Source: Candidatus Parcubacteria bacterium (GTDB lineage: Bacteria; Patescibacteriota; Patescibacteriia; 2-12-FULL-60-25). From it: a stretch of DNA of 64,000 bases. The stretch is taken from contig JBDKJL010000038.1 of the NCBI GenBank assembly GCA_039796615.1, positions 78,033 to 142,032 of the forward strand, read 5' to 3'. The stretch's first letter is position 1. Every line of letters begins with the position of its first letter. The position numbers were made by a program, and so were the translations under genes. Under the pieces are notes generated by a model. It did no database searches. It was not told the origin of the DNA and worked only from the letters and a program-made list of their open reading frames with translations. This document shows positions 11,925-32,140 of this stretch, piece by piece.

Positions 11925-12461
11925 TCAGAGGTTTGGGAGTTCGATTTGGAACCACTCGCATTCGCCGAGGCTGATGTCGAGTATATGATCGTCCTCGCCA
12001 CTCAAGTAGTAGCCAATGCCTACGGCTAGAATGGCGTGCCCAAGGACCGCGACATCCTCGAAATCTTCGGGTTCACTCTCCTGAATTTTTTGGAGGATCA
12101 CGCCGCCTCCCACCGCAGCATATTCGAGTATCGCTTGTTTCGCGGGGGAGTTGAGGTAGTCACGCAATGGTGCGTACTGCAGTGTGGCAAAGGCGAGGTT
12201 CATCGCCTCCGTCCATGCGGGGTTGAGCCCGAAATATAGCTCTTCCTGCACGAACTCGGGAGGGCGCCCGATGGCGATTTCTGTGGTGCGGCAAGCTCGT
12301 GGAGCCGCTGATGCGAGGACGATACGCGGAGAAAATCCATCTGCTCTCCACTGCTTACCGAGTTCTTCGGCTTGCAGGGTTCCTTTGGCAGAAAGCGGAC
12401 GATCTCTGTCGTTTTTGGCCTGTTCTGTGTGCGCATGGCGCCCGATGCGAATTCTTTTCAA
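11925..12461 (-). CDS. Histidine phosphatase family protein, SixA-like (candidate phosphohistidine phosphatase)
   Basis: This 178-aa ORF has N-terminal IRIGRHAHTEQ...RPLSAKGTLQAEELG (RH catalytic dyad) and a VAVLGHAILA second-His motif. Size and layout are those of SixA-type short histidine phosphatases. Confidence 0.7.
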   Translation of the reverse strand: MKRIRIGRHAHTEQAKNDRDRPLSAKGTLQAEELGKQWRADGFSPRIVLASAAPRACRTTEIAIGRPPEFVQEELYFGLNPAWTEAMNLAFATLQYAPLRDYLNSPAKQAILEYAAVGGGVILQKIQESEPEDFEDVAVLGHAILAVGIGYYLSGEDDHILDISLGECEWFQIELPNL

Positions 12462-12580: not shown

Positions 12581-14080
12581 TTAGGCGCGTTTGAGAACGG
12601 TCACGGTTCCCTTATTCGCGTCTACTTCTACAAGATCACCATCTTTAATCACTTTTGTGGCGATTTTTGTGCCGATGATGCAGGGCTTTTTCATTTCGCG
12701 GGCAACGATGGCGGCATGGCAGGTAATTCCTCCCTCGTCGGTAACGAACGCCGCCGCTTTTTGCATGGCGGGGAGATAGTCCGGGCGGGTCATCACGGCA
12801 ACCACGATGTCCCCTTCTTGCACCTTATTGATCTCTTCAACGCTTTCCAAGATGCAGGCGCGGCCTTGAGTAATTCCTTTGCTCGCCACAAAGCCTTTTA
12901 GCGATTGCCCTTCGGCGTGCGAGGTGTTTCCGGTGCCGATGAGGTCGAGTGTTTTAATGAGTGTTTGATCCGTTGTTACGTCGTAGATATCTTTTTCCCA
13001 AAAAATGATGCAGTACTCAATCCGTCGATCCAGTTCGGCGGGATCGATGCGTTCTGCGAGGATGTCGGGGATTTCGGGCGGGAACGCATATTTGAGCTGC
13101 TCAAGTGTGTAATGAGTGCGATTCGCGATCTCCTCCAGCAGAAGACTGAAATAGTGCGTCGCCCAGAACGTTCCTTTTTTTCGTTCATCCTGCCAGGCGT
13201 TCATGTCGTCTGTGATGCGTAAAAGCGTGATGAGCTCTTGCGGAAGCTCGAGCGTATGGATGAGTGCATCTTTTTCAGCGCGATGGGTGGTTGCGAGGGA
13301 TTGAATGGTGGCGATACGTTCATCGATTTTTTCTCCCAACATCTTTTCTAAACGGGCGTCGAAAAACGCCTCATCCAACATGTGGTCTTTAACGTAATTA
13401 TTTTGGATCCAGAAAAAGGAATCCCGATGCGCGCGTATCAGCGCTTGCCGCTGGGATGGATCGGCTTGAACCTGTTTTGCGATCGCAAGGAGCGCGATCT
13501 CTTCCTCTTGTAAAAAGGAGGTGAACACGGGAGCGGTGAGCGTGGCGAAGGATTCTACAAAGGAATGCGCCATCCCGCGTGTTTCCAAGTGCTCTTTGAT
13601 TTTTGAAGCGATCAACGCGTCCGTGCTCAGGGAAAACCCGTCGATGAGCGGTGAGGCGTTGAGCTTTTTTGTGTAAATATCCGCCAACTGTTCGTACGCA
13701 GCACGAAGGTCCGCCGTGCTCCACGCCGCACGGTTTGCCTGGGCGATCGCCGCGCATGCCGTGTAGAATTGTTCTTGCCAGGGCAAGAATGCCTGAACGA
13801 TTTTTTGGCTTACATCCGGATCGTGTGTTGCCGCCTCGATCATTTGTGAGGCCGTGTATGTGAGCTCTTCCAGGCTGTGATACCAATCTGCACGATTTTT
13901 TGAGAATCCAGCATAAGCCAGGCGTTGCCCGAATGGGTATGTGGTGTCTTGGATGCTCGAGATATGGGCATCCCCCAAAAAGAACATGAAGTGCGGGCAC
14001 GCATCAAAGCGTTGCCGGTACCATGTGGCCTTTTCGATCTTCTGCATCCGTTCCTGAATGAGTCCGATATGTTGTTTCAT
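12581..14080 (-). CDS. Single-module protein: unassigned helical domain plus PEP-utilising-enzyme mobile (swivel phosphohistidine) domain
   Basis: This 499-aa ORF ends in GFVASKGITQGRACIL...VVAVMTRPDYLPAMQKAAAFVTDEGGITCHAAIVAREMKKPCIIGT...DGDLVEVDANKGTVTVLKRA. It has no ATP-grasp domain and no TIM barrel. Its ATG lies 3 nt after the stop of the giant gene. Confidence 0.85.
   Translation of the reverse strand: MKQHIGLIQERMQKIEKATWYRQRFDACPHFMFFLGDAHISSIQDTTYPFGQRLAYAGFSKNRADWYHSLEELTYTASQMIEAATHDPDVSQKIVQAFLPWQEQFYTACAAIAQANRAAWSTADLRAAYEQLADIYTKKLNASPLIDGFSLSTDALIASKIKEHLETRGMAHSFVESFATLTAPVFTSFLQEEEIALLAIAKQVQADPSQRQALIRAHRDSFFWIQNNYVKDHMLDEAFFDARLEKMLGEKIDERIATIQSLATTHRAEKDALIHTLELPQELITLLRITDDMNAWQDERKKGTFWATHYFSLLLEEIANRTHYTLEQLKYAFPPEIPDILAERIDPAELDRRIEYCIIFWEKDIYDVTTDQTLIKTLDLIGTGNTSHAEGQSLKGFVASKGITQGRACILESVEEINKVQEGDIVVAVMTRPDYLPAMQKAAAFVTDEGGITCHAAIVAREMKKPCIIGTKIATKVIKDGDLVEVDANKGTVTVLKRA
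12584..12895 (-). repeat. Swivel phosphohistidine domain copy 9 (in the downstream satellite gene)
   Basis: The catalytic His codon of GGITCHAAIV is at 12716..12718. Domain limits are approximate. Confidence 0.8.
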
Positions 14081-14083
14081 AGG

Positions 14084-17000
14084 TTAGGCGCGTTTAAGAA
14101 TGGTAACGGTGCCGGTGTTCGCGTCCACTTCTACCTCATCCCCATCGTGGAGAGCTTGCGTGGCAACTTTGGTTCCTACAAGGCAGGGTTTTTTGAGCTC
14201 GCGGCTCACAATGGCCGCATGAGAGGTGAGACCGCCGGTATCGGTGAGGATGGCGGCGGATTTTTTCATCGCAAAGACGTATTCCGGGGATGTCATGGGC
14301 GCGACCAATATTTCGCCATCTTGGAAGGTTGCTTGTTCGGGATCGAGTAAAATGCGCACCTTGCCCGTGGCTTTACCCGGGCTTGCGATGGTACCGTGAA
14401 AGGAATCCACAAGCGCCTCAAATTTTTCTTGCGCAAAGATTTCCCAATAGTGTTTTGCATCCGCTTCGTGAAAACGCTCCACGCGGTGAACACCATGGAA
14501 CCCTCCATATGAACGTAGAGTGACGCGCTGTTTCTCCCGGATAACACGTGGAATTTCGTCCCAGAACAGGTCGAGAAGGGCGTCGGCATCATTCCCGGTG
14601 CGTCGTGCCGCTTCTTGCAGAAGAAGATATTTGTAATGCAGGCCGATAAAAATATATTTTTTGCGTTCGTCTTGCCACTCAATATTTTTAACAGCCGTTT
14701 CGGCGATATGCTGGATATTCTTATTTAATTTGAATTTTTTGATGCACGCCGTTTTTTTCTTCTGGACGTCTTTAAGACGTGCGGCCGCCGCATCGTCAAA
14801 ATCCTGCGGAATCTCCTTTTTCCGCTCGCGGAAAAATTCTTCGTCTAAGACGCGTACGCCCCCATAGCTATTTTTGAGCCAGTAGTATTTTTTAGCGTGT
14901 GCGGAAATATTTTGTGTTTTGAGGAGCTCGCTCTCCTCTTCTTGGTAGAACGACGCCTCTTCCGGCGCTAACAATACTTCCATGGCTTCTTTGCGTTCTT
15001 TCTCTTGAGGGATGACGTGCGCAAGCTCCGTTTCAAGTAACACATCTGCCCCATAGTTTCCAAGTTCCGGTGGAATAGTGGGTGTCCAGAAGGCGATCAT
15101 CTTTTGATGGTAGTCCGTCCACAGGTCGAGGAACGCGTCATCCGAAAGAGATGTAATGTCGAGTGTATCTATGCGCTGCTGTGTTTTTTCGAGTACCGCA
15201 ATAGCCTCTTTCCATTCTGCATACAACCCTGCACGAAACGGCTCATCAAGCATCTGCGTTTGGAAAACGCGTACGGCCTCTTTTTGCAGAGAAGGAAAGT
15301 CGTTAATCCACACCATACGCTTTTCATGGAACAGCATGAGCCACTCTGGCCAGGGGTATCCGAACCGTTTTTCGAGCATCTCACCACATTCCGTAATAAA
15401 CTCCGACACGAAAAACACGCGTCCCGGCACAGGCCCCCATCGGAATACATTCTTCCCTGCTGGAATACTGACAGGTGTGGAAGATGGATACTCGGTGGAT
15501 GCGCGATGCAGAATTTTGATGATGCCGGTGTTCGCGTCCACCTCCACTTCATCTCCGTTATGGAGCACTTGGGTTGCGATTTTGGTGCCGATGATGCAGG
15601 GCTTCTTCATTTCGCGGCTTACGATGGCCGCGTGGGAGGTGATACCGCCGCTATCGGTAACGAATGCGGCTGCTTTTTGCATGATCGGAACGTAGGCGGG
15701 CGTTGTTTCGGGCGCAACGAGAATCTCGCCTTCTTGAAATGCTTCCATTTCATTTGGCATAAACATCACACGGACAATCCCGGCAACGCGGCCTTTGTTT
15801 GCGATAGATCCCTTAAACGTCGTAATCGCTGTTTCTTGTTTGGGAATAAATTGATCTACAAATGCCTGGAGCTCTGCTCCGGTAACCACAACGATACGGC
15901 CTTGGTGCATAAACGCCCCATGGCCAACTTTTCGTTTTTCAATTTCTGCCGCGTTTGCCTTGATCCCTTGTTGGCACCATTCGATAATTTCTTGGTGCGT
16001 GAGCCAAATAAAATCCTCGTAAGAGATTCCAAGCTTTTTAGACAAATGAGAAAAAAGTGGCCGCGCGGCGTAGCTTACGCGATTCACCGTTTCGGCCGTT
16101 TGTAATCGAAGCCATGCAAATAATCGGGCGACTTCGAGGGCGAAGTGAAGATCCGGGGCGTCGCTTATCGATGCCTTGTGGATTGGCGCGTCTGTGACGG
16201 TATTTATATCTTCGATGAGTCGCTGCGCCGTGTAAGGCGTTCCCCAAAAATGGTGCGTCCCCACCCAGGCGTATGTATCAACTAACTGTTGGAGGCGCTG
16301 ATAGAGCGCGGGATCGTTTGCCTGTAAGCGACCCAACGCTGCGTCGTCCATGTGTTTGTAGCCGTGATTTTCCAAATCCTCCCGGAAGGAAAGAAGCTCC
16401 TGTTTCTGCTCCATGGAAAACGTTTTTCGATCTGGATGCATGTGGCCGGACAGTTCTTCGAGCGCATATCCGTGCTTCCGTGCCGTTTCGGTAATGAAGT
16501 CTTGACCAACATCTCCGATGTAAAAAATCCCGGCCCACGAACCCGTAATCTGGTGGTAGCGGTTAAAGAATTCCCGGAACAATGCGACAGGTTCTTCATC
16601 TGTGAAACGCTCCAGCCTGTCGATGAGTTCCGTGAAGTGATTCAGTGCCTTTTCTGAACGGGCGACATATTCCTGGAAAAAGGAAATATCGTTGATTTTT
16701 AATTTTTCTTTTGTGAGTGCCTTGATCGCGTGGCTACTTTTTGCATCAAAGAATCCGTGCCCGTCGAACGTGAGCACCTCGCCAGTTACCTGGATCCCGA
16801 ACGCTTTTAATGTCTCCCCCTCCCCCCACTGGAACCAGGGCGACCAAGCAAGCGTAGGGCCTTTCCATTGACCCATGTAAACGTAATCCTCTTTACGGAA
16901 AGAGGGGGCGTCTGGAGTATGACGTTTAAGAATTCGAACAATGCCGTTGTTTGCGTCTACCTCCACTTCATCGCCATCCTGCAGTGTATGCGTTGCCGTT

Positions 17001-20000
17001 CTGGTGCCGATGATGCACGGCTTATTTAGTTCGCGCGAAACAATGGCCGCGTGGCAGGTGATCCCCCCTTCGTCGGTGACAATGGCCGCCGCCTCGCGCA
17101 TGAGGGGGACGTATTCTGGACGGGTCATCCCCGTAACGAGGATTTCTCCAAATTGAAAAGAGGAAAACTGATCCAAAGATTTAATCACGCGGACACTCCC
17201 CCGGGCGTACCCCTTATTTCCGATGCTTCCGTGGATTTCGTTTGTGCCTTTCTCGGTTTCGCCGACGAATGCCTCATGGATGAGCTTGGCGTTTTCTTCC
17301 ACGCGGTCGTATGAAATCTCGATTGGTCCAGAATATGGAACGTACACGACATATTCCTCCTCCCGTTTCAGGAGTTCATCTTTGATGGAGGCGACGTAGG
17401 AGGATCCTTGAATGAGTTCCTGGCATGGCAAAATATTTTCGATGAGTTTTCGATCCACTCCCGCTTCTTGGAACAGGCGTTCTGCAATGCGCCATGCGAC
17501 GGTAATCCCCTTTGCGAAATGATTTTTTCGTTCATCGCGTGTTTGCATGACCGTTTGGCAATAACGCACAATGAGCGCCTGCTCTGCGGAAAGCGTACGG
17601 ATCCAACGGTTAAAGGCGTCTTTTTTCTCTGCCTGCTCATGATCCATGTATGCAAGCTCCGCGCGGGCATGCTCTATATCATGAAGGAAGGCGCCGTATG
17701 TTTTTTGAAGTTCTTCACGGACCTGCTCCAATGCGTACACGTTTCGATAGGATGTCCAGAAATATTGGCATGACTCCAGGAGCGTTTCTTCGGGCTCTTT
17801 CGCAATAATCCGACAAAGGAGGTCGCGTTTTTGTGCTCGATCGAACGATTCGGCAACCATCTCTGTTGCGCGTTGCCAAATCGTTTCAATATCCTGTCTT
17901 GAAATGTTGAGATTGGCCGACTGTACGACATTCCAGCACAAATCAATATCAAAAAAGAGGGAAAAATGTGACCACGCGTTTGTTTCCCAGAACTGATCAA
18001 ACGCATGTTGGATGGTCGCTACGAGTGCGGATTCTGGTTGATTTTTAATGTATGGACATCGATACGTTTCATAAAGCGCATCAACCGTTGGGAAATTTTT
18101 ATGAAATTGTTCTAAGCGTCGTTCAAGCGATGAGGGATCTTTTAAAAACGTTTCAAATCCTTCTATGGCGTAACAGGGAAACGTTTTTTCGGGAATCAAT
18201 GTTTGCGTTTGTCCATGATGCCTAATATTGATGAGCCCGTAGTTTACCCCGCAGTGAAAAACAGGGCTGTAGTATTTTTCCGTGTTGTATCTAGACCCAA
18301 AAATAAAGAGGGAGTAATTGTGAAGCGGAGGGTAGATTTTATCCCCGCCGAGTTCATCGATAAATTTTTGCGCGAGAAGCTTTTGCTCACTTTGGCGAGA
18401 CAGAATACGTACGATTCCATTGTTCGCATCCACTTCTACCTCATCCCCATCCTGCAACACCTGTGTGGCGATTTTTGTGCCGACAATGCAGGGTTTTTTG
18501 AGTTCGCGCGCCACGATGGCGGCGTGGGAGGTGATGCCACCGACGTCGGTGATGAACGCGGCCGCCTTTTTCATGGCGGGGAGTAGTTGCGGGCTGGTGG
18601 CGGTAGAGATGAGAATATCCCCCTCCTCTACCTTCCCGTTATGTTGCGGGCCAAACACGAGCTTTACCGTTCCGCGTGCAGTACCCGATTGCGCCACCTG
18701 TCCTTTGAGTTCGCCGTTATTTTCTGTTTTTGGGGGTATCACGCGCGTTTTCACATACGCATCAGCCTCGCTCCCCGTGATGACCGCACAACCATCTCCA
18801 TTTTTAATAATCACGGCATGTTTCCATCGTTCTTCCAAATTTGTGGGGAGAGATGCCGCGCCCTCGATCACGGCAATGAGCTCTTGCGCAGTGAGGGTGC
18901 CAAGAAGCCGCACCGGAACATTGTATTCTGCCGCCAGCCGCTTGAGCATGCGGTTTACGATCACAAATAGGGCTTGTCGGGCTTCTGTGCGGATGGTTTT
19001 GATGAAGATGATGTCTCGCACGGTGCGGAATAGCTGTGCTTCCTGTTCCGTGAGTGCGAGCTCTTTTTGCAGTGCGGCGTGTGGCGCTTTCGGTGAGGGC
19101 GCTACGGATTCACGGATATGCGCGATCTGTTCATCTGTAAGGCCTGTGCCGATGTACCCTTGATCCAACCAGAAGTATTTTTTTTGCAATTCCGCGCTTG
19201 AGGCACTGCTCTGACGGATATCCGCATACGCTTGTTCGGTATGGCTGAGCGCTTCGGGCGCGCCAAGAACGGTAGCGTAATAGGAGGCGGGATGCGGCAG
19301 ATTTTTCCGTTGTGCGAATACGCTCATGAGCCGCTCTGTTACGGCGCCGAAGACATCGGCGAAGGCAACCACCATGCCAAAGCGTGTACAATCTGCCTGG
19401 ATTTCGTAGGCGCGCGCAAGGATCGCCGGATAGTTGGATACGGGGCAAACTTCTATCTGCTCTCGAACCTCGTTCGCATACGCCCAAATCTCATTTGAAT
19501 GCGTGATGGTTTTTTCTTTTAGTTCATCGAGTAACGGTCGGTTGGTGAGCACGGCGTCTGCGCACGTTTGGATGAGCGTTCGAGAAGGCTCCTCCTCTGT
19601 GTAATAGTTAATCACGCTCCCGTTCACCACTTCTAAAAAAGCATCTGGTTCCGACAGACCGATCTGCTCCTTGATGCGCGTATCACGCACCCCTCTCCAG
19701 ACGTTCTCCAGCGTGAGCACGGATGTGTCGACATCTTGGTTGATGCGTGTGTAGGTGCGGTTTTTTGATTCGGCATTTTGCGCACGGTTTAAAATACGCA
19801 CAACGCCGTTATCCGCATCCACCTCCACCTCATCGCCATCATGTAGTGCTTGTGTGGCGATTTTGGTGCCGATGATGCAGGGCTTTTTCATTTCACGAGC
19901 CACGATGGCGGCATGGCAAATAACGCCGCCTTCGTCTGTAACGAACGCACTCGCGCGCTTCATGGCTGACAAAAAATCCGGTGTTGTCATGGGCGCAACC

Positions 20001-23000
20001 AAGACATCCCCTTCTTGAACGTGCACCATGTCGCTTTGTTTCTTTACGATTTGCACACGCCCCCGTACGATTCCTTTATAGGCCACCTGACCCGTGATCG
20101 TGTCGGACGTAGAGATGGCGGTCTCTTTATACGTATATTCTGGATGACTCTGGCCGAATGCCTCGAGTGTCCCGCGGTAATGCTCCGTTCCGTCGATCAT
20201 CACAAATGCCTGCAGCCGCTGCTTCAGCTCTTCTTCAGACGGAAGCGCGTTTAATTCATGTGGGAGCACCACGCCCGCCAGCTCCTCAGAGATGCCTCCA
20301 AGATGGGCGATCATTTTTCTTACAAAAAGATCATTTTCTGCAAAGAAATCCGTGTCTTTTCTTGATTGTACGGAGATCGCTTTTGCGGCATCCGGGCTAC
20401 GGTCATCCAATCCTGAATAAAAGAACAGCGTGAGTTTGAAGATCGCATCGTAAATCAAGTCCGTATATTCTTTGATATCCACGACGTCTGTGAGAGGTCC
20501 CTTTGAGCGTAATTGCGCAAGCCGTACGAGCGGTGCTTTATACGCACGAGCGAGCTCTTCTAAAAATGCCGGATTGGCATTCGCGGATAGGAGTTTTTCC
20601 TGGAACCAGTTGAAGGCTTTTTCGTGTTCCCAAATTTCTACAACCCCTTGATGAACATAATGCGTTAGCATCGGCGGAAACGGATTTTCCCAGCCGAGTG
20701 TTGATTTAATCTGTTCCGTTAAACTCTTTACCCACAACACCTGCATGAAGAGCGTGGTGTCACGGGAATAGGATTTTTTGAAGACGGCTTTTTTATCTGC
20801 TTCTGTGCGTTTCAAAATCCGCACAACGCCATTATTCGCGTCCAACTCCACCTCATCCCCATCTTTGATGGCCTGTGTCGCGATTTTTGCGCCGATGATG
20901 CATGGCACATTGAGTTCGCGGCTCACGATGGCGGCATGGGAAGAAATACCTCCTTCATCGGTGATGATGCCGCCTGCCTTGCGCATGAGGGGGACAAATT
21001 CAGGCCGCGTCATCATGGTGATGAGGATGTCACCCCGCTGTAATCGTTTTGCGGCCGGGCTATCTGGCGATGGCACGATGCGCGCGATTCCTTTGACGTA
21101 GCCTTGGCATGCGACGGCGCCTTTGATTTCATCGACATCTGTACGTGGGAGACGCTTGCAGAGGCGTTCAAAGAGCTCTGTCGCCTTATCCCCCTCAAGA
21201 TACGAGATGTTATTTTCGTGATAGATCGCAATAATCCCCTCGCGTTCGCGACGCTTGAGCATTTCGGCATCGATAGATCCTAAAAAGACGTCTTTTACCT
21301 CGTCGAGTGTGAGATCATTTAGGAGTGCGCGATCGATTCCCTGTCGTGCAAGGCCTTCACAAACGAGTCGCGTACAGCCATAAAGGCCGACATAATTGAA
21401 TCGCTTACGGTCATCACGCCAGATAGCGAGCGTTTGAAAAATTTCAAGAGGGTTTTCTTTTAATCCATGTTTCTTGAGAATTTTTTGTTGCTTTTTTGTC
21501 GGCGAAACGAACGGATGTACGTGGACGTCTTTTGCCTTCTCCCGCAGCCATTGTTCGTCGATTTCTTGGAACGTTTCGTAATCCGTACCGATCCAAAAAA
21601 ATTCGTTCAGGAATGCCTCCGCCGATTTCTTTCCCGCATTGAGGTCTGCGAGTGCCTGTTCAAGCTCTGTCACATACGATTGTTCCTGTGGCATGAGAAG
21701 ATCTGCGGCTTCTTGAGCCGAAAATCCATGCTGCTGCACGATACGGTGGATTTCTTCCTGATCAAATCCGGGATCAAATGAATCGAGGAAAAGGGAAATC
21801 CCCCACATTTCCTGATCTTTTTTGAGAACGGTTTGAAACCGCTCCCAAAGCTCTTCGTTGGTGAGTGTTTTGAGATCCGCTCGCCAGATTTCATGAGACG
21901 CCTCAAATAAGGCTTGTTTCAACCGCTTCCATTCCGTTTCCCATTCGGGTGGAAAACCGTTTTTTGTTCGTTCAAAAAAGGCGTCTGCGACCTGCTTCAT
22001 CCCCGCTAAGTCAAATAAGTTTGTGACGTGTTTTTCTTTGTAATACACACACCAATTCCCGTATCCGATGGAAAGGTATTTTTTAACTCCTTCAAATGAG
22101 GTAAGAGGATACGAAATTTGATGGAATCCGATTTTACCTCCTTGACGGTAGAGGGGGGCTTCTTGTGAAAAGGCTTCGTTGCCCGCCGCTTTTTTGAAAA
22201 TTCGCACAACGCCGTTGTTTGCATCCACTTCTACCTCATCTCCGTTATGGAGTATTTGGGTCGCGATGTTGGTGCCGATGATGCAAGGCTTTTTGAGTTC
22301 TCGGCTTGCGATTGCGGCATGGGATACGATCCCTCCTTCATCAGAAATGATCGCTGCGGCACGTTTCATGCCGACAATAAAATCCGGAGTGGTTGTACTC
22401 GCCACGAGGATTTCTCCTTCTTTGACCGTATTTGCATCCTGACGATTGCGTACGATGCGGACGTATCCACGCGCAACGCCAGGATAAGCGGAGACACCAC
22501 GGCACTCTGTCGCGGATGGATCTGCTGTGGGGATGACCAATTGGATGCGCTTTTGCATCTCTTTCATCGCCTCTCCGGTGAAAACGCCTTGCGGTGTGAT
22601 CAAATACCCCTGCGCACGTTCTTGTAGGGTTTGTGCTGAGGGCGCATGACCCGTTGTGCATTCTTCGACGGTCAGGAGGTCGCGATATTGAACGGGTACA
22701 CCTGTGAATTGGGCAATGGAGTTGCGGAGGACTGCATCGGCTCCTGGGATCATCTTTTCTCCGCGACGACGGAACGTCATGAGGCGTTCTACGATGTCTT
22801 TTTTTGTCGGTTGGTGCTCAAGATTTTCGATCCCCCACCAAACTCCCGTATACCATGACCATACGATTCGTAGTGCTTCGATAAACGACGCGAGTTCTTT
22901 TTGTGTGAGCGCGGATTCTTTTTGAACGATCTGCTCAACGGCGTCGTAGGCCTCGTTTGCGTATTTTAGAAGCCACTCGATATAAGACGCGTCTTGCTCG

Positions 23001-24175
23001 ATGCGGTGATTTACTTCTTCACCTTGTTTGAGCGTTTGTTTTTTATCGAGAAATAGTTGCTGCGCGCCGAGGCGGCCGACCGTTACAAAATATGGTTCGC
23101 TGAGAGATTGACCATCCATCCATGGCTGCGGACCACTTTCCACTTCCGTTGCAATTTGCATTGTCGCTAACGTGAAATCACGCGTTCCAAATAAATCCAA
23201 ACGCGGAATGGCTTCAGGAATTTCCTCTAACGGCTTCAACGTCGTAATCGGTCGGCTTTGCACGATGTAAAAAATTCCATCTTCCATCGCCCACTCAATA
23301 TCGCAGGGGAAACCATAGTGTTGCTCGATGCGGAGGATGAGGTTTGAAAGCTCTTGGATCTGCGGTTCGGTGAGCACTTGGGATTCGCCGAGGGCGGGTG
23401 AAAGGTCGCGCCATTCGTTGCCGCCGTGTGTTGAGCGATAGAGGGCGCGGGTTTGATGGCTTACGTTGATGTCGATAATCCGACGCGGATTTTTTTCCAC
23501 CACGTAGCTATCGGGGGTTACCTGGCCGCTCACGATGGCTTCGCCAAGGCCGAATCCGGCTTCGATAATCAGTTGGTTATAATCTTCGGTTACCGGATGC
23601 ACGGAAAACGCGATCCCGCTGGCGTCGCTTGCCACCATTTTTTGCACCACCACGGCCACGGAAATGCGCTGGCTGTGAAGATCTTTTTCAAACCGATAAA
23701 AAATGGCGCGTGGCGTAAAAAGCGATGCCCAGCAGTTTTGGACATTTTGGAGCAAGGTCTCTTCTGTCGTATTCAAAAAACTATCGAGCTGCCCGGCCCA
23801 GGCGGCGCTGGCGCTGTCTTCGGCGGTGGCAGAGGAGCGCACGGCAACGTGTTCGGCACCGAGTGCCTTAAACTGCACGCGAATATCTTCGGCGATGTCT
23901 TGAGGCATCGCGACACTTTTGATGAGCGCCTGGATTTTTGCCGAAGCCTGCTCCACCGTATGAATCTCCTGATGATTTACGGTGTGGAGCGTGGCGTCGA
24001 TTTCTGTATTCAGCTCTGTTTCCTCCAAAAATCGGTCAAATGTGCTCGCGAGCACCACAAATCCCGGTGGCACCGGGATCCCCGCCTGGGTCATCTCCCC
24101 CAAGGACGCGCCTTTTCCCCCGGCATCCCCCACATCCTCTTTAGAGAGCGCAGAGAACGGTTTTGAGATGGGCAT
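14084..24175 (-). CDS. Giant (3363 aa) PpsA/rifampicin-phosphotransferase-like protein: one ATP-grasp domain followed by seven [helical domain + swivel phosphohistidine domain] modules
   Basis: This is a single uninterrupted ORF starting at ATG 24175. The N-terminus has PPDK_N/PpsA motifs (GGKGASLGEMTQAGIPVPPGF, VAVRSSATAEDSASAAWAGQ, IIEAGFGLGEAIVSGQVTPD, DIEWAMEDGIFYIVQSRPIT). Seven GG-x-x-[SC]-HAAI-x-[SA]-RE...PC-I/V-I/V-G...DGDEVE-V/L-DA-x-x-G motifs place the catalytic His at aa 619, 1080, 1421, 1884, 2375, 2848 and 3319. I did not recognise a PEP/pyruvate-binding TIM barrel. Confidence 0.9.
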   Translation of the reverse strand: MPISKPFSALSKEDVGDAGGKGASLGEMTQAGIPVPPGFVVLASTFDRFLEETELNTEIDATLHTVNHQEIHTVEQASAKIQALIKSVAMPQDIAEDIRVQFKALGAEHVAVRSSATAEDSASAAWAGQLDSFLNTTEETLLQNVQNCWASLFTPRAIFYRFEKDLHSQRISVAVVVQKMVASDASGIAFSVHPVTEDYNQLIIEAGFGLGEAIVSGQVTPDSYVVEKNPRRIIDINVSHQTRALYRSTHGGNEWRDLSPALGESQVLTEPQIQELSNLILRIEQHYGFPCDIEWAMEDGIFYIVQSRPITTLKPLEEIPEAIPRLDLFGTRDFTLATMQIATEVESGPQPWMDGQSLSEPYFVTVGRLGAQQLFLDKKQTLKQGEEVNHRIEQDASYIEWLLKYANEAYDAVEQIVQKESALTQKELASFIEALRIVWSWYTGVWWGIENLEHQPTKKDIVERLMTFRRRGEKMIPGADAVLRNSIAQFTGVPVQYRDLLTVEECTTGHAPSAQTLQERAQGYLITPQGVFTGEAMKEMQKRIQLVIPTADPSATECRGVSAYPGVARGYVRIVRNRQDANTVKEGEILVASTTTPDFIVGMKRAAAIISDEGGIVSHAAIASRELKKPCIIGTNIATQILHNGDEVEVDANNGVVRIFKKAAGNEAFSQEAPLYRQGGKIGFHQISYPLTSFEGVKKYLSIGYGNWCVYYKEKHVTNLFDLAGMKQVADAFFERTKNGFPPEWETEWKRLKQALFEASHEIWRADLKTLTNEELWERFQTVLKKDQEMWGISLFLDSFDPGFDQEEIHRIVQQHGFSAQEAADLLMPQEQSYVTELEQALADLNAGKKSAEAFLNEFFWIGTDYETFQEIDEQWLREKAKDVHVHPFVSPTKKQQKILKKHGLKENPLEIFQTLAIWRDDRKRFNYVGLYGCTRLVCEGLARQGIDRALLNDLTLDEVKDVFLGSIDAEMLKRREREGIIAIYHENNISYLEGDKATELFERLCKRLPRTDVDEIKGAVACQGYVKGIARIVPSPDSPAAKRLQRGDILITMMTRPEFVPLMRKAGGIITDEGGISSHAAIVSRELNVPCIIGAKIATQAIKDGDEVELDANNGVVRILKRTEADKKAVFKKSYSRDTTLFMQVLWVKSLTEQIKSTLGWENPFPPMLTHYVHQGVVEIWEHEKAFNWFQEKLLSANANPAFLEELARAYKAPLVRLAQLRSKGPLTDVVDIKEYTDLIYDAIFKLTLFFYSGLDDRSPDAAKAISVQSRKDTDFFAENDLFVRKMIAHLGGISEELAGVVLPHELNALPSEEELKQRLQAFVMIDGTEHYRGTLEAFGQSHPEYTYKETAISTSDTITGQVAYKGIVRGRVQIVKKQSDMVHVQEGDVLVAPMTTPDFLSAMKRASAFVTDEGGVICHAAIVAREMKKPCIIGTKIATQALHDGDEVEVDADNGVVRILNRAQNAESKNRTYTRINQDVDTSVLTLENVWRGVRDTRIKEQIGLSEPDAFLEVVNGSVINYYTEEEPSRTLIQTCADAVLTNRPLLDELKEKTITHSNEIWAYANEVREQIEVCPVSNYPAILARAYEIQADCTRFGMVVAFADVFGAVTERLMSVFAQRKNLPHPASYYATVLGAPEALSHTEQAYADIRQSSASSAELQKKYFWLDQGYIGTGLTDEQIAHIRESVAPSPKAPHAALQKELALTEQEAQLFRTVRDIIFIKTIRTEARQALFVIVNRMLKRLAAEYNVPVRLLGTLTAQELIAVIEGAASLPTNLEERWKHAVIIKNGDGCAVITGSEADAYVKTRVIPPKTENNGELKGQVAQSGTARGTVKLVFGPQHNGKVEEGDILISTATSPQLLPAMKKAAAFITDVGGITSHAAIVARELKKPCIVGTKIATQVLQDGDEVEVDANNGIVRILSRQSEQKLLAQKFIDELGGDKIYPPLHNYSLFIFGSRYNTEKYYSPVFHCGVNYGLINIRHHGQTQTLIPEKTFPCYAIEGFETFLKDPSSLERRLEQFHKNFPTVDALYETYRCPYIKNQPESALVATIQHAFDQFWETNAWSHFSLFFDIDLCWNVVQSANLNISRQDIETIWQRATEMVAESFDRAQKRDLLCRIIAKEPEETLLESCQYFWTSYRNVYALEQVREELQKTYGAFLHDIEHARAELAYMDHEQAEKKDAFNRWIRTLSAEQALIVRYCQTVMQTRDERKNHFAKGITVAWRIAERLFQEAGVDRKLIENILPCQELIQGSSYVASIKDELLKREEEYVVYVPYSGPIEISYDRVEENAKLIHEAFVGETEKGTNEIHGSIGNKGYARGSVRVIKSLDQFSSFQFGEILVTGMTRPEYVPLMREAAAIVTDEGGITCHAAIVSRELNKPCIIGTRTATHTLQDGDEVEVDANNGIVRILKRHTPDAPSFRKEDYVYMGQWKGPTLAWSPWFQWGEGETLKAFGIQVTGEVLTFDGHGFFDAKSSHAIKALTKEKLKINDISFFQEYVARSEKALNHFTELIDRLERFTDEEPVALFREFFNRYHQITGSWAGIFYIGDVGQDFITETARKHGYALEELSGHMHPDRKTFSMEQKQELLSFREDLENHGYKHMDDAALGRLQANDPALYQRLQQLVDTYAWVGTHHFWGTPYTAQRLIEDINTVTDAPIHKASISDAPDLHFALEVARLFAWLRLQTAETVNRVSYAARPLFSHLSKKLGISYEDFIWLTHQEIIEWCQQGIKANAAEIEKRKVGHGAFMHQGRIVVVTGAELQAFVDQFIPKQETAITTFKGSIANKGRVAGIVRVMFMPNEMEAFQEGEILVAPETTPAYVPIMQKAAAFVTDSGGITSHAAIVSREMKKPCIIGTKIATQVLHNGDEVEVDANTGIIKILHRASTEYPSSTPVSIPAGKNVFRWGPVPGRVFFVSEFITECGEMLEKRFGYPWPEWLMLFHEKRMVWINDFPSLQKEAVRVFQTQMLDEPFRAGLYAEWKEAIAVLEKTQQRIDTLDITSLSDDAFLDLWTDYHQKMIAFWTPTIPPELGNYGADVLLETELAHVIPQEKERKEAMEVLLAPEEASFYQEEESELLKTQNISAHAKKYYWLKNSYGGVRVLDEEFFRERKKEIPQDFDDAAAARLKDVQKKKTACIKKFKLNKNIQHIAETAVKNIEWQDERKKYIFIGLHYKYLLLQEAARRTGNDADALLDLFWDEIPRVIREKQRVTLRSYGGFHGVHRVERFHEADAKHYWEIFAQEKFEALVDSFHGTIASPGKATGKVRILLDPEQATFQDGEILVAPMTSPEYVFAMKKSAAILTDTGGLTSHAAIVSRELKKPCLVGTKVATQALHDGDEVEVDANTGTVTILKRA
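14087..14398 (-). repeat. Swivel phosphohistidine domain copy 8 (giant protein module 7, C-terminal)
   Basis: The motif is GGLTSHAAIVSRELKKPCLVGT, with the His codon at 14219..14221. Limits are approximate. Confidence 0.8.
15500..15811 (-). repeat. Swivel phosphohistidine domain copy 7 (module 6)
   Basis: The motif is GGITSHAAIVSREMKKPCIIGT, with the His codon at 15632..15634. Confidence 0.8.
16919..17230 (-). repeat. Swivel phosphohistidine domain copy 6 (module 5)
   Basis: The motif is GGITCHAAIVSRELNKPCIIGT, with the His codon at 17051..17053. Confidence 0.8.
18392..18703 (-). repeat. Swivel phosphohistidine domain copy 5 (module 4)
   Basis: The motif is GGITSHAAIVARELKKPCIVGT, with the His codon at 18524..18526. 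Confidence 0.8.
19781..20092 (-). repeat. Swivel phosphohistidine domain copy 4 (module 3)
   Basis: The motif is GGVICHAAIVAREMKKPCIIGT, with the His codon at 19913..19915. Confidence 0.8.
20804..21115 (-). repeat. Swivel phosphohistidine domain copy 3 (module 2)
   Basis: The motif is GGISSHAAIVSRELNVPCIIGA, with the His codon at 20936..20938. Confidence 0.8.
22187..22498 (-). repeat. Swivel phosphohistidine domain copy 2 (module 1)
   Basis: The motif is GGIVSHAAIASRELKKPCIIGT, with the His codon at 22319..22321. Confidence 0.8.
23215..24175 (-). other. ATP-grasp nucleotide-binding domain (PPDK_N type) of the giant protein; the only one in the locus
   Basis: It covers aa 1 to about 320 of the giant ORF and carries the PpsA N-terminal motifs listed above. 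The lower boundary is approximate. Confidence 0.8.
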
Positions 24176-24214: not shown

Positions 24215-25690
24215 CTAGGCGGCTGTGCGGCGTAAAATCCGAACGGTTCCGTGGTTTGCGCGAACCTCCACCAGGTCACCATCGTTAATCGCCTGCGTGG
24301 CGGTTTGTGTGCCGATCACACACGGCTTTCCGAGCTCTCGTGAAACGATGGCGGCATGGCAGGTGATCCCCCCTTCGTTTGTGATAATGGCCAACGCTTT
24401 TTTCATGAGCGGCACAAACTCCGGGCGGGTCATGCTGGTAACCAGAATCTCTCCTTCCTGGAACGATGGGAAATCCGCTTCCGCTAAAATCACGCGCGCG
24501 ATGCCCTTTGCGTACCCCTGCGAGGCGGTTCGGCCATAGAGAATATCTTGCGCGGCGGCACCGGCGAACGCTTGTTCAAGATCAGCGTTGAGCGATTGCG
24601 CTTCTGCGCCCTCAAAGAGCGTTGCGTCTTCTGAAGTTACACGGATCACGACGCCTTCTTCATATCGGTGCTTGAGCGTGTCTGCGGTTAACGACCCATC
24701 GAGGACCTGATCTATTTCGTGCATGGCCAGGAATCGAAGGAGGCGATTCGCGATGCCCGTTTGTTTTTCGAGGTGTACGAGATACGCCTCAATCACATGA
24801 AACCCCATCAGGTTGATTTTTTTACGATGTTCGCGCCAGGCCGTGAGCGCATTAAAAAACCAGAGTGGATTTTCTTTTAATCCATGCGTTTTCGTAATGG
24901 CACGAATGGACGCTTCTTTTGTGGTTGTATAGGCGCGGAGTTCGGCGAGATCTTGTTGGAGACGGTGAGAGTCTCCGGCATAAATGCGCGCTTCATCAAG
25001 AATTTCTTGATCCGTAATTGGTTTAAGACGCGCGTAATTTGCTTGGACGTAATCGAACTGCTGCCGATACGACGTGAGAATGTCTTTGTGCGTGATAAGG
25101 AGGCTATCAAGCATCTCTGGGGAGATCTGAATTTTTTGCAAGAGTTCCAAAAAGGCTTGTTTGCGTTCGTCCGCAAACGTCATTTCGGATGGTGTGGAGA
25201 GGACTTGGACCTCTTCTTTGTTAAGCCCGTGCTGTTCGGCAATTTTTTTGATCTCTTCTTGATCGACGCCAGTATCGAATGCGTCGATAAAAAGGCTCGA
25301 ATCCCAAAAAGCGTGGTAGGCGGTACGGAGTTGTTGAAATGTTTCTCGTGCCGTTGTGGTATCTGCGAATACGGATGGATCGAATGTTTTATGGTAGAGC
25401 GTTTCGATGGCTTGAGCGTGTGCGAGATAGGCTGCATATTGCGTTTGATAGCCCTCTTGCGTGCCGTATTGTTGATAATAGAGCCGAGCGAGATGTTGGA
25501 GCGCCTCAAAATCCCAATACAAAACGCCGTATGTTTTTTGGAAAAACGCATGGAGATCTCCGAACGCGCCACGCTCTCCATTGGCGTTGAGCGCGAATGA
25601 GCCCGCAACATCCATCCATGGCCAGCAGGTGATGGGCATGATTTCACCCTCTTGTTTATAGAGTTTTTTGGGGAGAGGGCGGGGTGTCAT
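24215..25690 (-). CDS. Single-module protein: unassigned helical domain plus swivel phosphohistidine domain (upstream satellite)
   Basis: This 491-aa ORF ends in GRTASQGYAKGIARVIL...ILVTSMTRPEFVPLMKKALAIITNEGGITCHAAIVSRELGKPCVIGT...DGDLVEVRANHGTVRILRR. It stops 39 nt before the start of the giant gene. The exact start is uncertain. Confidence 0.85.
   Translation of the reverse strand: MTPRPLPKKLYKQEGEIMPITCWPWMDVAGSFALNANGERGAFGDLHAFFQKTYGVLYWDFEALQHLARLYYQQYGTQEGYQTQYAAYLAHAQAIETLYHKTFDPSVFADTTTARETFQQLRTAYHAFWDSSLFIDAFDTGVDQEEIKKIAEQHGLNKEEVQVLSTPSEMTFADERKQAFLELLQKIQISPEMLDSLLITHKDILTSYRQQFDYVQANYARLKPITDQEILDEARIYAGDSHRLQQDLAELRAYTTTKEASIRAITKTHGLKENPLWFFNALTAWREHRKKINLMGFHVIEAYLVHLEKQTGIANRLLRFLAMHEIDQVLDGSLTADTLKHRYEEGVVIRVTSEDATLFEGAEAQSLNADLEQAFAGAAAQDILYGRTASQGYAKGIARVILAEADFPSFQEGEILVTSMTRPEFVPLMKKALAIITNEGGITCHAAIVSRELGKPCVIGTQTATQAINDGDLVEVRANHGTVRILRRTAA
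24218..24535 (-). repeat. Swivel phosphohistidine domain copy 1 (in the upstream satellite gene)
   Basis: The His codon of GGITCHAAIV is at 24356..24358. Confidence 0.8.
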
Positions 25691-25736: not shown

Positions 25737-26132
25737 TTAGTCGCTCACGATAACGGTGAATCCGCCAAAGGACATACGCTTCATATCAAAAGGCATGGGT
25801 TTATTTTTATATTTGGGGTCGTTCATGCTGGAGTCTTTCATCACCTTTGCGTTTACCTGATCGCGATGTGCGCGGCTCTTGTAGGTGATGTAGGAAAAAA
25901 TAATCACTTCGCTCGGTTTTTGTTTCACGATTTTGGGGAACGTAAGCGTAACGCCTTTAGGCTTGAGATCATCCCCTACGCACTCTTTATAATCCAACGC
26001 ACCGTATTTTTTCCAAATACGGCACCCTTCTGCGGCCATGCGGCGATAGGCAGGCAAATTCTTTTTAGACACGACAAGGAGGAAGCCGTCCACGTAGCGG
26101 GAAGATGTTTTCATAGGAGGAGATTGTAGCAT
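25737..26132 (-). CDS. DUF1428 family protein
   Basis: The sequence is (M)KTSSRYVDGFLLVVSKKNLPAYRRMAAEGCRIWKKYGALDYKECVGDDL...FDMKRMSFGGF, which is the typical DUF1428/YbaA-like sequence pattern. ATG 26114 is an alternative start. Confidence 0.7.
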   Translation of the reverse strand: MLQSPPMKTSSRYVDGFLLVVSKKNLPAYRRMAAEGCRIWKKYGALDYKECVGDDLKPKGVTLTFPKIVKQKPSEVIIFSYITYKSRAHRDQVNAKVMKDSSMNDPKYKNKPMPFDMKRMSFGGFTVIVSD

Positions 26133-26206
26133 GGGGATTTTAGTGCGTCTTGGTTGAACTGATAAGGAATCCTTAATAGGTGCTCTGTCTATTCATCTAA
26201 ACGCTT

Positions 26207-26692
26207 CTATCGCATCGGTGCCGTAAATTTCTTCGGATCAAACGCTGTCGCCAGTGGTACGATTTGTGCCGCGAGGGTTGGGAGGTGTTGTTGGAGCTCC
26301 TCTTTGGAAAAGAAACGGATTTCTCTACATTCTTCTGTGGGCGTGAAGTCGAGATGTTCCAGTTCCATGCGGAAGATGACGGTGAGGACGTAATACCATT
26401 CCATCCCACGTCCGGTTCCATGTCGGGTTGTCCAGATATAGGTGGGCGTTTCTTCGATTTGCGTAACGGACAGCCCCATTTCTTCTCGAACTTCGCGTTT
26501 GATGGCGTCTGTAAACTGTTCTCCAAAATCAAGACCCCCACCGGGCAACTCCCATTCAGGGCGGGGGTCTGTGGCACTTCGCCCGGTAAAATCTTTTACG
26601 AGGAGTACCTTCCCGTCACGTACACACATTCCTTTAGCCGTGACGCGGTAAAAAGCATCTGGGAAATCCGGAGAGATTTGCGGAGGTTTCAT
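26207..26692 (-). CDS. NUDIX hydrolase
   Basis: This 161-aa ORF has the Nudix box GGGLDFGEQFTDAIKREVREEMGL. Confidence 0.85.
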   Translation of the reverse strand: MKPPQISPDFPDAFYRVTAKGMCVRDGKVLLVKDFTGRSATDPRPEWELPGGGLDFGEQFTDAIKREVREEMGLSVTQIEETPTYIWTTRHGTGRGMEWYYVLTVIFRMELEHLDFTPTEECREIRFFSKEELQQHLPTLAAQIVPLATAFDPKKFTAPMR

Positions 26693-26700
26693 AGCGACGT

Positions 26701-27615
26701 TTACCGCGCCCCATCGTTTTGCGCGGCTGCCTCCAGCTCCGCAATATTCAGTTTCTTCATTTTGAGCATCACTTGCGTAACCCGATTCATTTTTTCTTTG
26801 TCATCGGTATGCATGAGCTCGTTCATGTTCGTGGGCACGATCTGCCAACTCACGCCGTATTTGTCTTTGATCCAACCGCATTGTTCGGCGGCGGGAACGG
26901 CGGAGAGTTTTTTCCAGTACGTATCGATTTCTTCTTGCGTGTCGCAGTTCACGATCAGTGAGATTGCTTCGTTGAATGTGTAACCGTGTTCGCGCGCAGA
27001 ATCCATGGCGGCGAACCATTGGCCTTCGAGCATCAACTCGCTAAACATCACCGTTCCTTCTTTATCCGGTTCCATGCCGGCGGGATAGTGAGCAATCATG
27101 CCGCGCTTGGCGTTGTTGAATACGGACAGGTAAAAATCCGCCGCTTCCTCTGCCTTGCCGCACAGATCGCCCACGAAGAGGAGCGATGGGATGATGGTGG
27201 GTCGCCGTTCGCCTTCTGGTTTTGTGAGAATGAGTTGCCAAGAGAATCCGTATTTGTCTTGAATCCAACCGTAGCGCTTGCTGAATGGATATTCCTGGAG
27301 CGGCATCAACACCTTTCCGCCTTCGGCGAGCTTGGCCCATACGTCGTCAATCCTCGTGGCGGCATCTGCATCCTGAGACGGATCAAAATTCACCAAGAAC
27401 GAAATGGATGGATTGGGTTTAAAATACGGCCCGGCACTGATGGCTTGGAATTCATACCCCCACAGTTGGAACGACACGATCTCGCAATCTCCCGACGGCG
27501 TGCCGGAGATCGTCGTAATATTTGTGACAGCGGATTCTGGGAATACGGACGCGTAGAAGGCAGCGGCCTCCTTGGCTTCCTTATCAAACCACAGGTGCGG
27601 GACGATTTTTTGCAT
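26701..27615 (-). CDS. Two-domain VOC/PhnB-like (3-demethylubiquinone-9 3-methyltransferase-domain) protein
   Basis: The start is taken at MQKIVPHLWFDKEAKEAAAFYASVFP. The second repeat begins at IIPSLLFVGDLCGKAEEAADFYLSVF. GWIQDKYGFSWQL and GWIKDKYGVSWQI motifs close the two halves. The ORF track start at 27657 is an alternative. Confidence 0.8.
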   Translation of the reverse strand: MQKIVPHLWFDKEAKEAAAFYASVFPESAVTNITTISGTPSGDCEIVSFQLWGYEFQAISAGPYFKPNPSISFLVNFDPSQDADAATRIDDVWAKLAEGGKVLMPLQEYPFSKRYGWIQDKYGFSWQLILTKPEGERRPTIIPSLLFVGDLCGKAEEAADFYLSVFNNAKRGMIAHYPAGMEPDKEGTVMFSELMLEGQWFAAMDSAREHGYTFNEAISLIVNCDTQEEIDTYWKKLSAVPAAEQCGWIKDKYGVSWQIVPTNMNELMHTDDKEKMNRVTQVMLKMKKLNIAELEAAAQNDGAR

Positions 27616-27669
27616 ATGAGAGGTCGATATTATTCGGAGGTTCTTAGCATACCGCATGCCGCCACGATC

Positions 27670-28197
27670 TCAAAGATGCGGCGCGTAGAGGATTTCTACA
27701 AGGGCTTTTAGATCCCCTTTTGCCTTATCGTCCGCTATAAGGCGCCGGTGGAGCTCGGCGGGCGAGAACCAAAAGAATTCGGTGAAGTCATCTGGATTAT
27801 AGTTTGGCGCTTCGTTCATCTCGATCTCCCACACCTTCATGGACGCACTGAGTGTTGGGTAGTCACGCGGTGTAAAGTGTCCAAGAAATGTTGACGAAAC
27901 CCGCTCGGCATCAAGATTCAGCTCTTCCATGAGCTCACGCGCAAACGCCTGCTCGTACGTTTCGGGCCAATCCACATGGCCGCCCATGCTGGTGTCTAAA
28001 CAGTCCGGAAAAATCCGTTTGTGGGGTCCCCGACGAGGAATCCAGATGTCCCCATGGGTGTTTCGCACGAACGCGTTCACCACACGAAAATTCTGCCAAT
28101 TTTTTTCTCCATTCCGTATTTGCCAGCCATCCCCCACCGGGATGTCATCTTTATCAACATGCCAGATACGGTCTTCTGCGGGTTGATGCGTGCTCAT
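27670..28197 (-). CDS. NUDIX hydrolase (IDI-like subgroup by layout)
   Basis: This 175-aa ORF has the Nudix box GGHVDWPETYEQAFARELMEELNL. Confidence 0.8.
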   Translation of the reverse strand: MSTHQPAEDRIWHVDKDDIPVGDGWQIRNGEKNWQNFRVVNAFVRNTHGDIWIPRRGPHKRIFPDCLDTSMGGHVDWPETYEQAFARELMEELNLDAERVSSTFLGHFTPRDYPTLSASMKVWEIEMNEAPNYNPDDFTEFFWFSPAELHRRLIADDKAKGDLKALVEILYAPHL

Positions 28198-28823: not shown

Positions 28824-28906
28824 AAAGGAGTATCTCACCGCATGGTAGACAAAATCCCCATTTCTCGATAGGGTGTGCCACGCACGCATTCAAGGAGGTT
28901 TTACAC

Positions 28907-30653: not shown

Positions 30654-30690
30654 TCTAATTTTAGCATCTTAAGCGGCTTATTTCACTCAC

Positions 30691-31734: not shown

Positions 31735-32140
31735 AGATTATCTCCTCCCCAATAATGACTGTATGCCACAGAGGATAGGACGAAGAATAGCAAAGAAGGG
31801 AAATAATCAAAAATCCGCCCTTATTCAAGACGGATTTTTGATGTCTTCTACAAACGTTGTCTTTCCCGCTCCCCCACCCCCCATTAATCGCGATGAGCCT
31901 TTCGTGATGTAGACGACAATACCCAACGCCATCATTTTTTTGCGATCGCGAACTTCGTTAATATTCCCCTAGTTTTTTTGGTTTGCCAGCGACACCACGC
32001 GCCATTCGATCCGTTTTTGAGGGGGACACGAACGGATAGAGACGGCTAGCCACACTATCATACCGTATGTTGGCCGATGTGGATATTTGTGTCCACAGAG
32101 GAGTTAGGGTGGCAGCGCCTCCCCTCCCCTGATACGCTTT

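Follow-up and report, generated by a model that had tools for sequence, protein, structure and literature searches.

We analysed a 64,000-nucleotide stretch of contig JBDKJL010000038.1 from a Candidatus Parcubacteria bacterium (hereafter the window, with positions counted from its first letter), which carries an unusual array of phosphotransfer domains. An open reading frame (ORF) at 14084-24175 on the reverse strand codes for a protein of 3363 amino acids (aa), the main array protein, and is flanked on the same strand by two smaller ORFs, satB (24215-25690), 39 nt upstream, and satA (12581-14080), 3 nt downstream. A Pfam scan of the main protein revealed one PPDK_N ATP-grasp domain (aa 1-318, 23222-24175; PF01326 matched at aa 18-314 with E 1.2e-94) and seven PEP-utilizers swivel domains with catalytic His residues at aa 619, 1080, 1421, 1884, 2375, 2848 and 3319. 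Both satA and satB consist of one helical region and one swivel. All nine swivels (PF00391, 7+1+1 copies; reverse strand, 24218-24508, 22196-22471, 20813-21088, 19790-20065, 18401-18676, 16928-17203, 15509-15784, 14087-14371 and 12584-12868) are located directly 3' of their own helical regions, and each of them has the GGxx[SC]HAAI motif that includes the catalytic His. The complete window was found to contain exactly one ATP-grasp domain for these nine swivels, as had been claimed in an earlier note made from the sequence alone, and a tblastn search over the window found no second copy.

Automatic annotation would probably call the main protein a phosphoenolpyruvate (PEP) synthase. The NCBIfam PEP synthase equivalog NF005057 scored 1086 bits against a cut-off of 598, and the closest match of the swivels was the archaeal PEP synthase 8A8E (E 2e-51). 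Both observations would be expected if the protein were a genuine PEP synthase or pyruvate phosphate dikinase (PPDK) with amplified swivels, in which the helical regions serve as inert spacers. However, the NF005057 match was confined to the ATP-grasp (9-342) and swivel (353-461) parts of a 798-position model, its score was a sum over eight stretches, and the PEP/pyruvate-binding C-terminal domain (PEP-utilizers_C) was absent from the Pfam matches of the array proteins. In addition, as described below, the helical regions are members of a conserved family that has its own signature motifs and a fold resembling that of rifampin phosphotransferase (RPH); they are not spacers. The partial coverage of the model and the missing PEP/pyruvate domain already contradict a PEP synthase or PPDK with spacer helices, which we consider extremely improbable. 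Because NF005057 passes its cut-off only through summation of the repeats, metabolic reconstructions could wrongly credit organisms of this kind with PEP synthesis.

The nine helical regions differ in length: two of the seven modules of the main protein (M1 and M3) have regions of ~250 aa, and the other seven regions, including those of satA and satB, measure 369-404 aa. All members of this long class contain an aromatic motif followed by a basic one, on the reverse strand as the genes. These are EFFWIGTDY (21578-21604) and IWRDDRKRF (21398-21424) in M2 (aa 661-1029, 21089-22195); KYFWLDQGY (19154-19180) and a variant basic motif, IRTEARQAL (18968-18994), in M4 (aa 1463-1833, 18677-19789); QYFWTSYRNVY (17735-17767) and TRDERKNHF (17516-17542) in M5 (aa 1926-2324, 17204-18400); TYAWVGTHH (16250-16276) and the variant AWLRLQTAE (16091-16117) in M6 (aa 2417-2797, 15785-16927); KYYWLKNSY (14864-14890) and EWQDERKKY (14654-14680) in M7 (aa 2890-3268, 14372-15508); SFFWIQNNY (13394-13420) and AWQDERKKG (13172-13198) in satA (aa 1-404 of 499, 12869-14080); and QFDYVQANY (25034-25060) and AWREHRKKI (24815-24841) in satB (aa 1-394 of 491, 24509-25690). 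All 13 motif strings quoted in the earlier note were present in the expected modules, and their positional homology was confirmed, as they occupied the same columns both in a MAFFT alignment and in an hmmalign alignment to a 75-sequence family profile. The degenerate basic motif of M6, at aa 2687, was aligned with the others and had not been listed previously. The spacing between the two motifs is 60-75 aa, and 53 aa in M6.

The long-class regions are demonstrably homologous to one another at the level of sequence comparison. BLASTP linked M2 with satB (4e-31), M7 with satA (1e-16) and M2 with M7 (3e-15), and weaker links were observed between M2 and M4 (1e-4), M2 and M5 (3e-4) and M6 and satB (3e-3). 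M2 and satB, the two most similar helical regions, also share a 74-nt direct repeat of 70% identity (21396-21469 and 24813-24886), which codes for their HGLKENP...W-R-[DE]-x-R-K stretch. Among 210 related modules (all full-length and non-identical), the family signature was [YF][FY]W-x2-[NS][NS]-Y and W-[RQK]-[DE]-x-R-K, and these two motifs contained the most conserved helical positions. Residue frequencies in percent were Y61/F32 - F51 - W70/Y20 - x - x - N48 - N50 - Y83 for the aromatic motif and W63 - R43/Q36/K12 - D68/E19 - E39 - R95 - K93 - K44 for the basic motif.

A structural relationship was revealed by an AlphaFold2 (AF2) model of satA, which was generated with a 75-sequence alignment as input and had a predicted local distance difference test (pLDDT) score of 94.5 and a predicted template modelling (TM) score of 0.92. 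When this model was compared with PDB by Foldseek, the first six entries were all RPH-Lm (E 4e-13 to 3e-11). Of these, 5FBT, 5HV1, 5FBU and 5FBS scored best, with query-normalised TM scores of 0.53-0.57 over 560-590 columns, i.e., over helical domain plus swivel, whereas all non-RPH matches had TM scores of at most 0.21 and covered the swivel only. Sequence comparisons were less uniform (see below), but two of them agreed on one alignment. With HMMER, the full family profile (positions 273-486) matched RPH residues 651-866, reaching ~120 positions beyond the swivel and placing 'aWrDeRKk' on RPH G664-Y665-R666-E667-Y668-P669-K670-Y671. The same register was obtained with hhalign against a profile of RPH-family fragments after swivels had been removed from both sides (E = P = 6.9e-4, 162 columns). 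RPH uses Arg666 to bind an oxygen of the phosphate and Glu667 to hold its catalytic His825 (PMC4844700); the R666A and E667A mutations abolish rifampin phosphorylation, and K670 is part of the hydrogen-bond network around the phosphate (PMC4844700). At the equivalent positions, the 210 modules had R/Q/K in 91%, D/E in 87% and K in 93%, with an adjacent R in 95%, and counterparts of Arg666, Glu667 and Lys670 were all aligned in M2, M5 and satB.

The predicted structure strongly suggests that helical regions of the long class share their fold with the RIF-binding domain, the substrate-binding part of RPH. With moderate confidence, the alignment further points to the basic motif as the phosphotransfer helix, a residue-level match to RPH Y665-R666-E667-x-x-K670. 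The matched domain is of the RIF-binding, ligand-pocket type; a scaffold without such a pocket had been named in the earlier note as an assignment that would speak against specificity domains. The motif does not mark a helix start, as had been proposed: in the satA model it is found about halfway along a helix of 41 residues (aa 281-321), and the aromatic motif occupies the end of helix 208-222 plus the next loop.

The short class comprises M1 (aa 319-568, 22472-23221), with an N-terminal GTRDFTLATMQ and a basic patch FRRRGEK, and M3 (aa 1122-1370, 20066-20812), with the motifs YSRDTTLFMQ and SRKDTDFFAEND; the shorter module length is also seen in the distance between His2 and His3, which is 341 aa as noted before. 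In M1 and M3, the match to the family profile began only at position ~305. Neither of them showed significant similarity to the 7-sequence alignment or to the other by BLASTP or hhalign, and homology became visible only with deeper profiles. With these, hhalign of the short class against the long class gave two collinear matches, 18-129 on 16-130 (E 5.5e-5) and 166-245 on 300-383 (E 3.8e-7, probability 93%), suggesting that the short class is the same domain minus ~170 central columns which hold both motifs. Thus, the two classes proposed earlier do differ in length, but they are not independent domains, the short one being homologous to the long one at both ends, and we describe it, on the basis of these profile matches, as a deletion variant. 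Similarly, the claim that M1 and M3 lack both motifs was right for the aromatic motif and the W-x-D part, but a basic pair is retained (RRR in M1, SRK in M3); by ungapped extension it lines up tentatively, within one residue, with R-K-K of the long class. An AF2 model of M3 (pLDDT 86.8) showed the element order of satA minus five helices (satA 171-277, ~107 aa, including the aromatic motif). Stand-alone homologues of M3 of ~340 aa were also found (P0153-P0158, 46-53% identity), and their own conserved motifs are YSRDTT, GVVEIWE, FFYxGxDER and [AS]R[KRE]xxDFF, the Arg of the last being invariant. At aa 393-567, M1 matched a profile of the M3 type (E 0.0037), and BLASTP linked it to the M3-type module of P0099 (E 3e-8); M1 is a diverged member of the M3 class.

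The helical regions of the window share only 17-40% identity with one another, and counterparts were found in other sequences for M2 (P0049/P0003, 43-44% identity), M3 (49-54%), M4 (P0051, 39%), M5 (L018, 49-50%), M6 (P0131, 60%), M7 (38-39%), satA (in candidate phyla radiation (CPR) and DPANN metagenome-assembled genomes (MAGs), 58-61%) and satB (37-41%). The variant motifs are also shared: AWLRLQTAETVN and YAWVGTHHFWGTPYT of M6 are nearly identical in P0131, and [FY]IKxxRxxxRQ of M4 is common to P0051. This pattern indicates that the modules are old, separately maintained lineages, as distinct acceptor specificities would predict.

Swivels had been described in the earlier note as near-identical, which was not observed: their protein identity is 52-70% (mean 60%), and nine copies of 229 nt have 64-72% identity at the DNA level. 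Each swivel was 64-85% identical to the swivel of its counterpart in other genomes, compared with 52-70% to swivels within the window, and therefore helical region and swivel are inherited together. Homogenisation of swivels within the genome was considered and is ruled out by the same comparison and by the 64-72% identity of the DNA copies. Since conservation of the swivel is general across the family, it does not indicate that the swivels of this genome share a partner, and the earlier argument from swivel conservation to a common ATP-grasp partner is not supported. The related proposal that the helical parts are specificity domains loses this premise but gains support from their homology to the ligand-pocket fold of RPH and from the separately conserved lineages. 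A further feature of the swivels concerns the position two residues before the catalytic His, which corresponds to that of the regulatory Thr of PEP synthase and PPDK: it is Thr in six of the nine (GGxT[SC]H), Val in swivel 1, Ser in swivel 2 and Ile in swivel 3, and RPH and HpeH have Met.

We then asked how widespread such modules are. When the seven long helical regions were scanned with Pfam and NCBIfam, no meaningful match was obtained (the best was DUF6698, E 9e-4, in one member), and no model of either collection covers the helical region. In contrast, an exhaustive HMMER search with a helical-only profile against 1.84 billion cluster representatives (50% identity clusters) found 5349 representatives at E<=1e-3, 3364 at <=1e-10 and 605 at <=1e-30. 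A word-indexed search with a profile of the helical regions detected 2 proteins only; given the outcome of the exhaustive search, that number reflects a limit of sensitivity. Among the best 150 matches, many had 2-4 modules (914-2648 aa) and many others were ~560 aa long, with a region of ~65-100 aa ahead of the module. One such protein, P0001 (L001, 4019-5731), has an N-terminal HTH_26 (XRE-type) DNA-binding domain fused to one helical plus swivel module, and many other ~560-aa proteins with a 65-100 aa leader may be constructed alike. This architecture suggests a regulator that depends on a ligand or on phosphorylation. The closest relatives of satB were the HTH-fused ~560-aa proteins P0010, P0019 and P0001 (37-41% identity). 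Besides, the 2648-aa protein P0056 has Trp at conserved Gly positions (e.g., EGWITCHAAI and WFGLGEAVVSG), suggesting that its source organism reads UGA as Gly and that the sequence was translated with UGA as Trp.

When genomes were scanned with the helical region of satA, 18 loci were obtained, all from MAGs, with a best identity of 60%. Some of these loci carry generic or doubtful taxon labels; all those with informative labels belonged to Patescibacteria/CPR (Parcubacteria, Saccharibacteria, Doudnabacteria) or DPANN archaea (Nanoarchaeia, Iainarchaeum). Arrays occurred elsewhere too, with five tandem genes each in L002 and L004 and eight genes in L020. The largest example was found in a Nanoarchaeota MAG (L021, 1793-16138), where a 4782-aa ORF contains at least 10 helical plus swivel modules and an N-terminal ATP-grasp that is 70% identical to that of the window; this is a six-frame ORF whose start codon is undefined, and it is followed by a further module ORF of 577 aa. 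One ATP-grasp per array was observed in L008, L018 and L021, where it is fused, and in L004, L009 and L020, where it is a separate gene of ~290-320 aa in or beside the array.

Since the nine helical lineages are separately conserved, the operon most likely provides one ATP-charging domain for up to nine acceptor sites. This reading builds on what was observed, namely the composition of the proteins in domains, the homology and fold of these, the conservation of motifs and the lineages of the modules, and we consider it fairly probable that the helical regions are diverged acceptor-binding/phosphotransfer domains and that a single ATP-grasp is multiplexed to as many as nine acceptor sites, seven of them fused and two separate. 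By analogy with RPH, PpsAB and HpeHI, the N-terminal ATP-grasp would bind ATP and pyrophosphorylate the swivel His; the gamma-phosphate would leave as Pi and AMP would be released. The swivel with its phosphorylated His would swing back into the middle of the helical domain to which it belongs, where the W-[RQ]-[DE]-x-R-K helix, as the counterpart of RPH Y665-R666-E667-x-x-K670, would hold the phosphohistidine and the phosphate, and the phosphate would move to a hydroxyl of the bound acceptor. M1 could be charged beside the ATP-grasp within the same polypeptide, and the other modules through transient docking, like two-component enzymes. In HpeHI, CreHI and PpsAB, a substrate-binding plus swivel subunit and a separate ATP-grasp subunit form transient complexes (PMC12167813). 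Catalytic activity, charging in trans and the number of active modules are what we infer by analogy with such systems. In a wider form of this reading, each swivel of a multiplexed dikinase would serve a different small-molecule acceptor in its own RPH-like domain, the arrays, whether fused or split, would be typical of the ultra-small CPR bacteria and DPANN archaea, and they could provide broad ATP-driven phosphorylation, and hence trapping or inactivation, of host or environmental compounds; we put this forward tentatively, at somewhat less than even chances.

Several observations weigh against the multiplexed ATP-grasp and the assignments on which it draws. Helical-only profiles, including one that covers the stretch from the RK helix to the swivel start, matched no RPH chain in PDB, so that the sequence-level link to RPH comes from the alignment anchored on the swivel and from hhalign. 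The hhalign probability was 27% and the HMMER posterior at the motif ~0.5-0.6, and for this reason residue-level equivalence is graded as moderate. RPH ranked first in Foldseek for the M3 model as well, with TM scores of only 0.33-0.34, little above those of swivel-only matches. Gln is found at the Arg666-equivalent position in M7 and satA, and the R-K pair is missing in M4 (IKTIRTEAR) and M6 (WLRLQTAE). Moreover, no conserved neighbours that could give a clue to the substrate emerged from clustering of ORFs in 22 loci, with the exception of TrmB-like regulators. Finally, satA-type genes in L002, L005, L010-L015 and L019 have no ATP-grasp within 10 kb, although the fetched loci span only +/-10 kb and such absence is weak evidence.

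Some of these features would be accounted for if only part of the modules were enzymes, with about five active sites, and M1, M3, M4 and M6 were non-catalytic and acted as ligand sensors, docking scaffolds or phosphohistidine buffers. M4 and M6 are without an R-K pair that is 93-95% conserved, M1 and M3 are without the whole central part of the domain, and the HTH_26 fusion apparently present in many relatives points to a function in sensing for some lineages at least. On the other hand, the catalytic His motif is kept in all nine swivels, modules of the M3 type are also conserved as stand-alone proteins that have an invariant Arg, and the variant motifs of M4 and M6 are kept between counterparts of only 39-60% overall identity, which indicates that they are under selection and not decaying. 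We regard this division of the array as an unlikely alternative.

Loci in which modules occur with no ATP-grasp within 10 kb imply that the ATP-grasp may not be the sole phosphate donor. The modules might then be mainly ATP-independent phosphotransferases, might relay phosphate between phosphorylated metabolites or might be fed by another donor. HpeH alone is able to move phosphate from 4-phosphoacetophenone to acetovanillone (PMC12167813). Genes of the phosphatase type are also located close by on the same strand of the window: the upstream neighbours (25737-28889, reverse strand) code for a HAD hydrolase, a NUDIX protein, a PhnB-like (3-dmu-9_3-mt) protein, a second NUDIX protein and a DUF1428 protein, and the downstream neighbour (11925-12461, reverse strand) codes for a His_Phos_1 histidine phosphatase. 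Furthermore, a phosphate acetyl/butyryl transferase (PTA_PTB) domain is situated between modules in the 1836-aa protein P0005, and a PTA_PTB gene (L002, 4764-5759) directly precedes the five-gene array of that locus; HAD and PfkB genes come after the array. However, an ATP-grasp is fused to or located beside the array in the window and in L004, L008, L009, L018, L020 and L021, and we judge supply by means other than ATP to be quite improbable. The multiplexed ATP-grasp is our preferred reading.

With regard to gene context, the three dikinase genes and the neighbours listed above may form one long operon rich in phosphoester/pyrophosphate hydrolases. The PhnB-like gene was the only window neighbour that recurred strongly elsewhere (in L001), and TrmB-like regulators were found near module genes in six loci (L001, L005, L014, L017, L019 and L020). 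The contig also carries the bacterial housekeeping genes rpoD, dnaG and uvrB. Positions 30001-32000 have a G+C content of 0.43, compared with ~0.50-0.55 in the surroundings, and include an ORF for a RhuM-family virulence protein (30691-31734, reverse strand); this stretch may be a small acquired island.

These observations provide a testable mechanism and a candidate catalytic motif for an uncurated family of 5349 cluster representatives. They also extend the stoichiometry of such enzymes: known dikinases of the type are 1:1, whereas the ratio is 1:9 here, and related arrays have from 2 to at least 10 modules, either fused or split. Such a ratio poses the question how far-off swivels can reach a single ATP site. 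All genome matches with informative labels were from CPR and DPANN, organisms whose metabolism is poorly understood, and the large share of a small genome taken up by the array (10 kb for one gene) implies an important function.

Comparison with known systems showed the closest similarity to RPH-Lm (5FBS/5FBT/5FBU, 5HV1-3), which also combines an ATP-grasp, a helical substrate domain and a C-terminal His swivel and was the sole PDB structure to match satA over its full length (TM 0.53-0.57). However, the identity in the structural alignment was only ~12-13%, RPH has one of each domain instead of one ATP-grasp and nine substrate plus swivel modules, and the swivel motif is GGLMTHGAV in RPH but the PEP-synthase-like GGxT[SC]HAAI here. 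The equivalogs for rifamycin-inactivating phosphotransferase (NF041857/NF000283) were examined as an annotation and rejected, as scores stayed below the cut-offs (654 bits vs 999 and 453 vs 1700) even when summed over eight stretches; they describe proteins of ~865 aa with a single ATP-grasp, RIF-BD and swivel, in contrast to the 1:9 arrangement. PF27448, which is recorded upstream of the swivel on RPH-family fragments (P0160-P0278), was not among the recorded matches of the window genes or their relatives. PRK08296-group NCBIfam families (568-633 positions, with a C-terminal swivel) matched only the swivel of the array proteins.

Satellite proteins and the split arrays L004, L009 and L020 resemble PpsAB, CreHI and HpeHI in that a substrate plus swivel subunit is separate from the ATP-grasp, and PpsA, CreH and HpeH share an acceptor domain of the RIF-binding type. 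In these enzymes, however, there is one acceptor subunit per ATP-grasp, and they are known from aromatic-degrading Proteobacteria and Actinobacteria, whereas the genomes in which the array family was detected are those of CPR and DPANN. PEP synthase and PPDK have a closely related ATP-grasp and swivel and use the same phosphohistidine shuttle chemistry; the array proteins are not PEP synthases because they have no PEP/pyruvate domain (the PEP/pyruvate-binding TIM barrel is missing), and their acceptor domain has a different fold. PigC, RedH and HapC have a similar layout, with a central substrate domain between ATP-grasp and swivel, and their NCBIfam models matched the ATP-grasp and swivels, but scores were 649-672 against cut-offs of 1300-1350, the known proteins have a single module and the window offers no biosynthetic gene context. 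PADLOC-DB defence models gave no match to the three array proteins at E <= 0.01, and in the literature searched there was no description of multi-swivel dikinase arrays or of such arrays in CPR or DPANN. By domain content and fold, the array is a member of the small-molecule dikinase superfamily of the RPH/PpsAB/HpeHI type, and one ATP-binding domain serving nine acceptor modules appears to be a new architectural arrangement of this known type.

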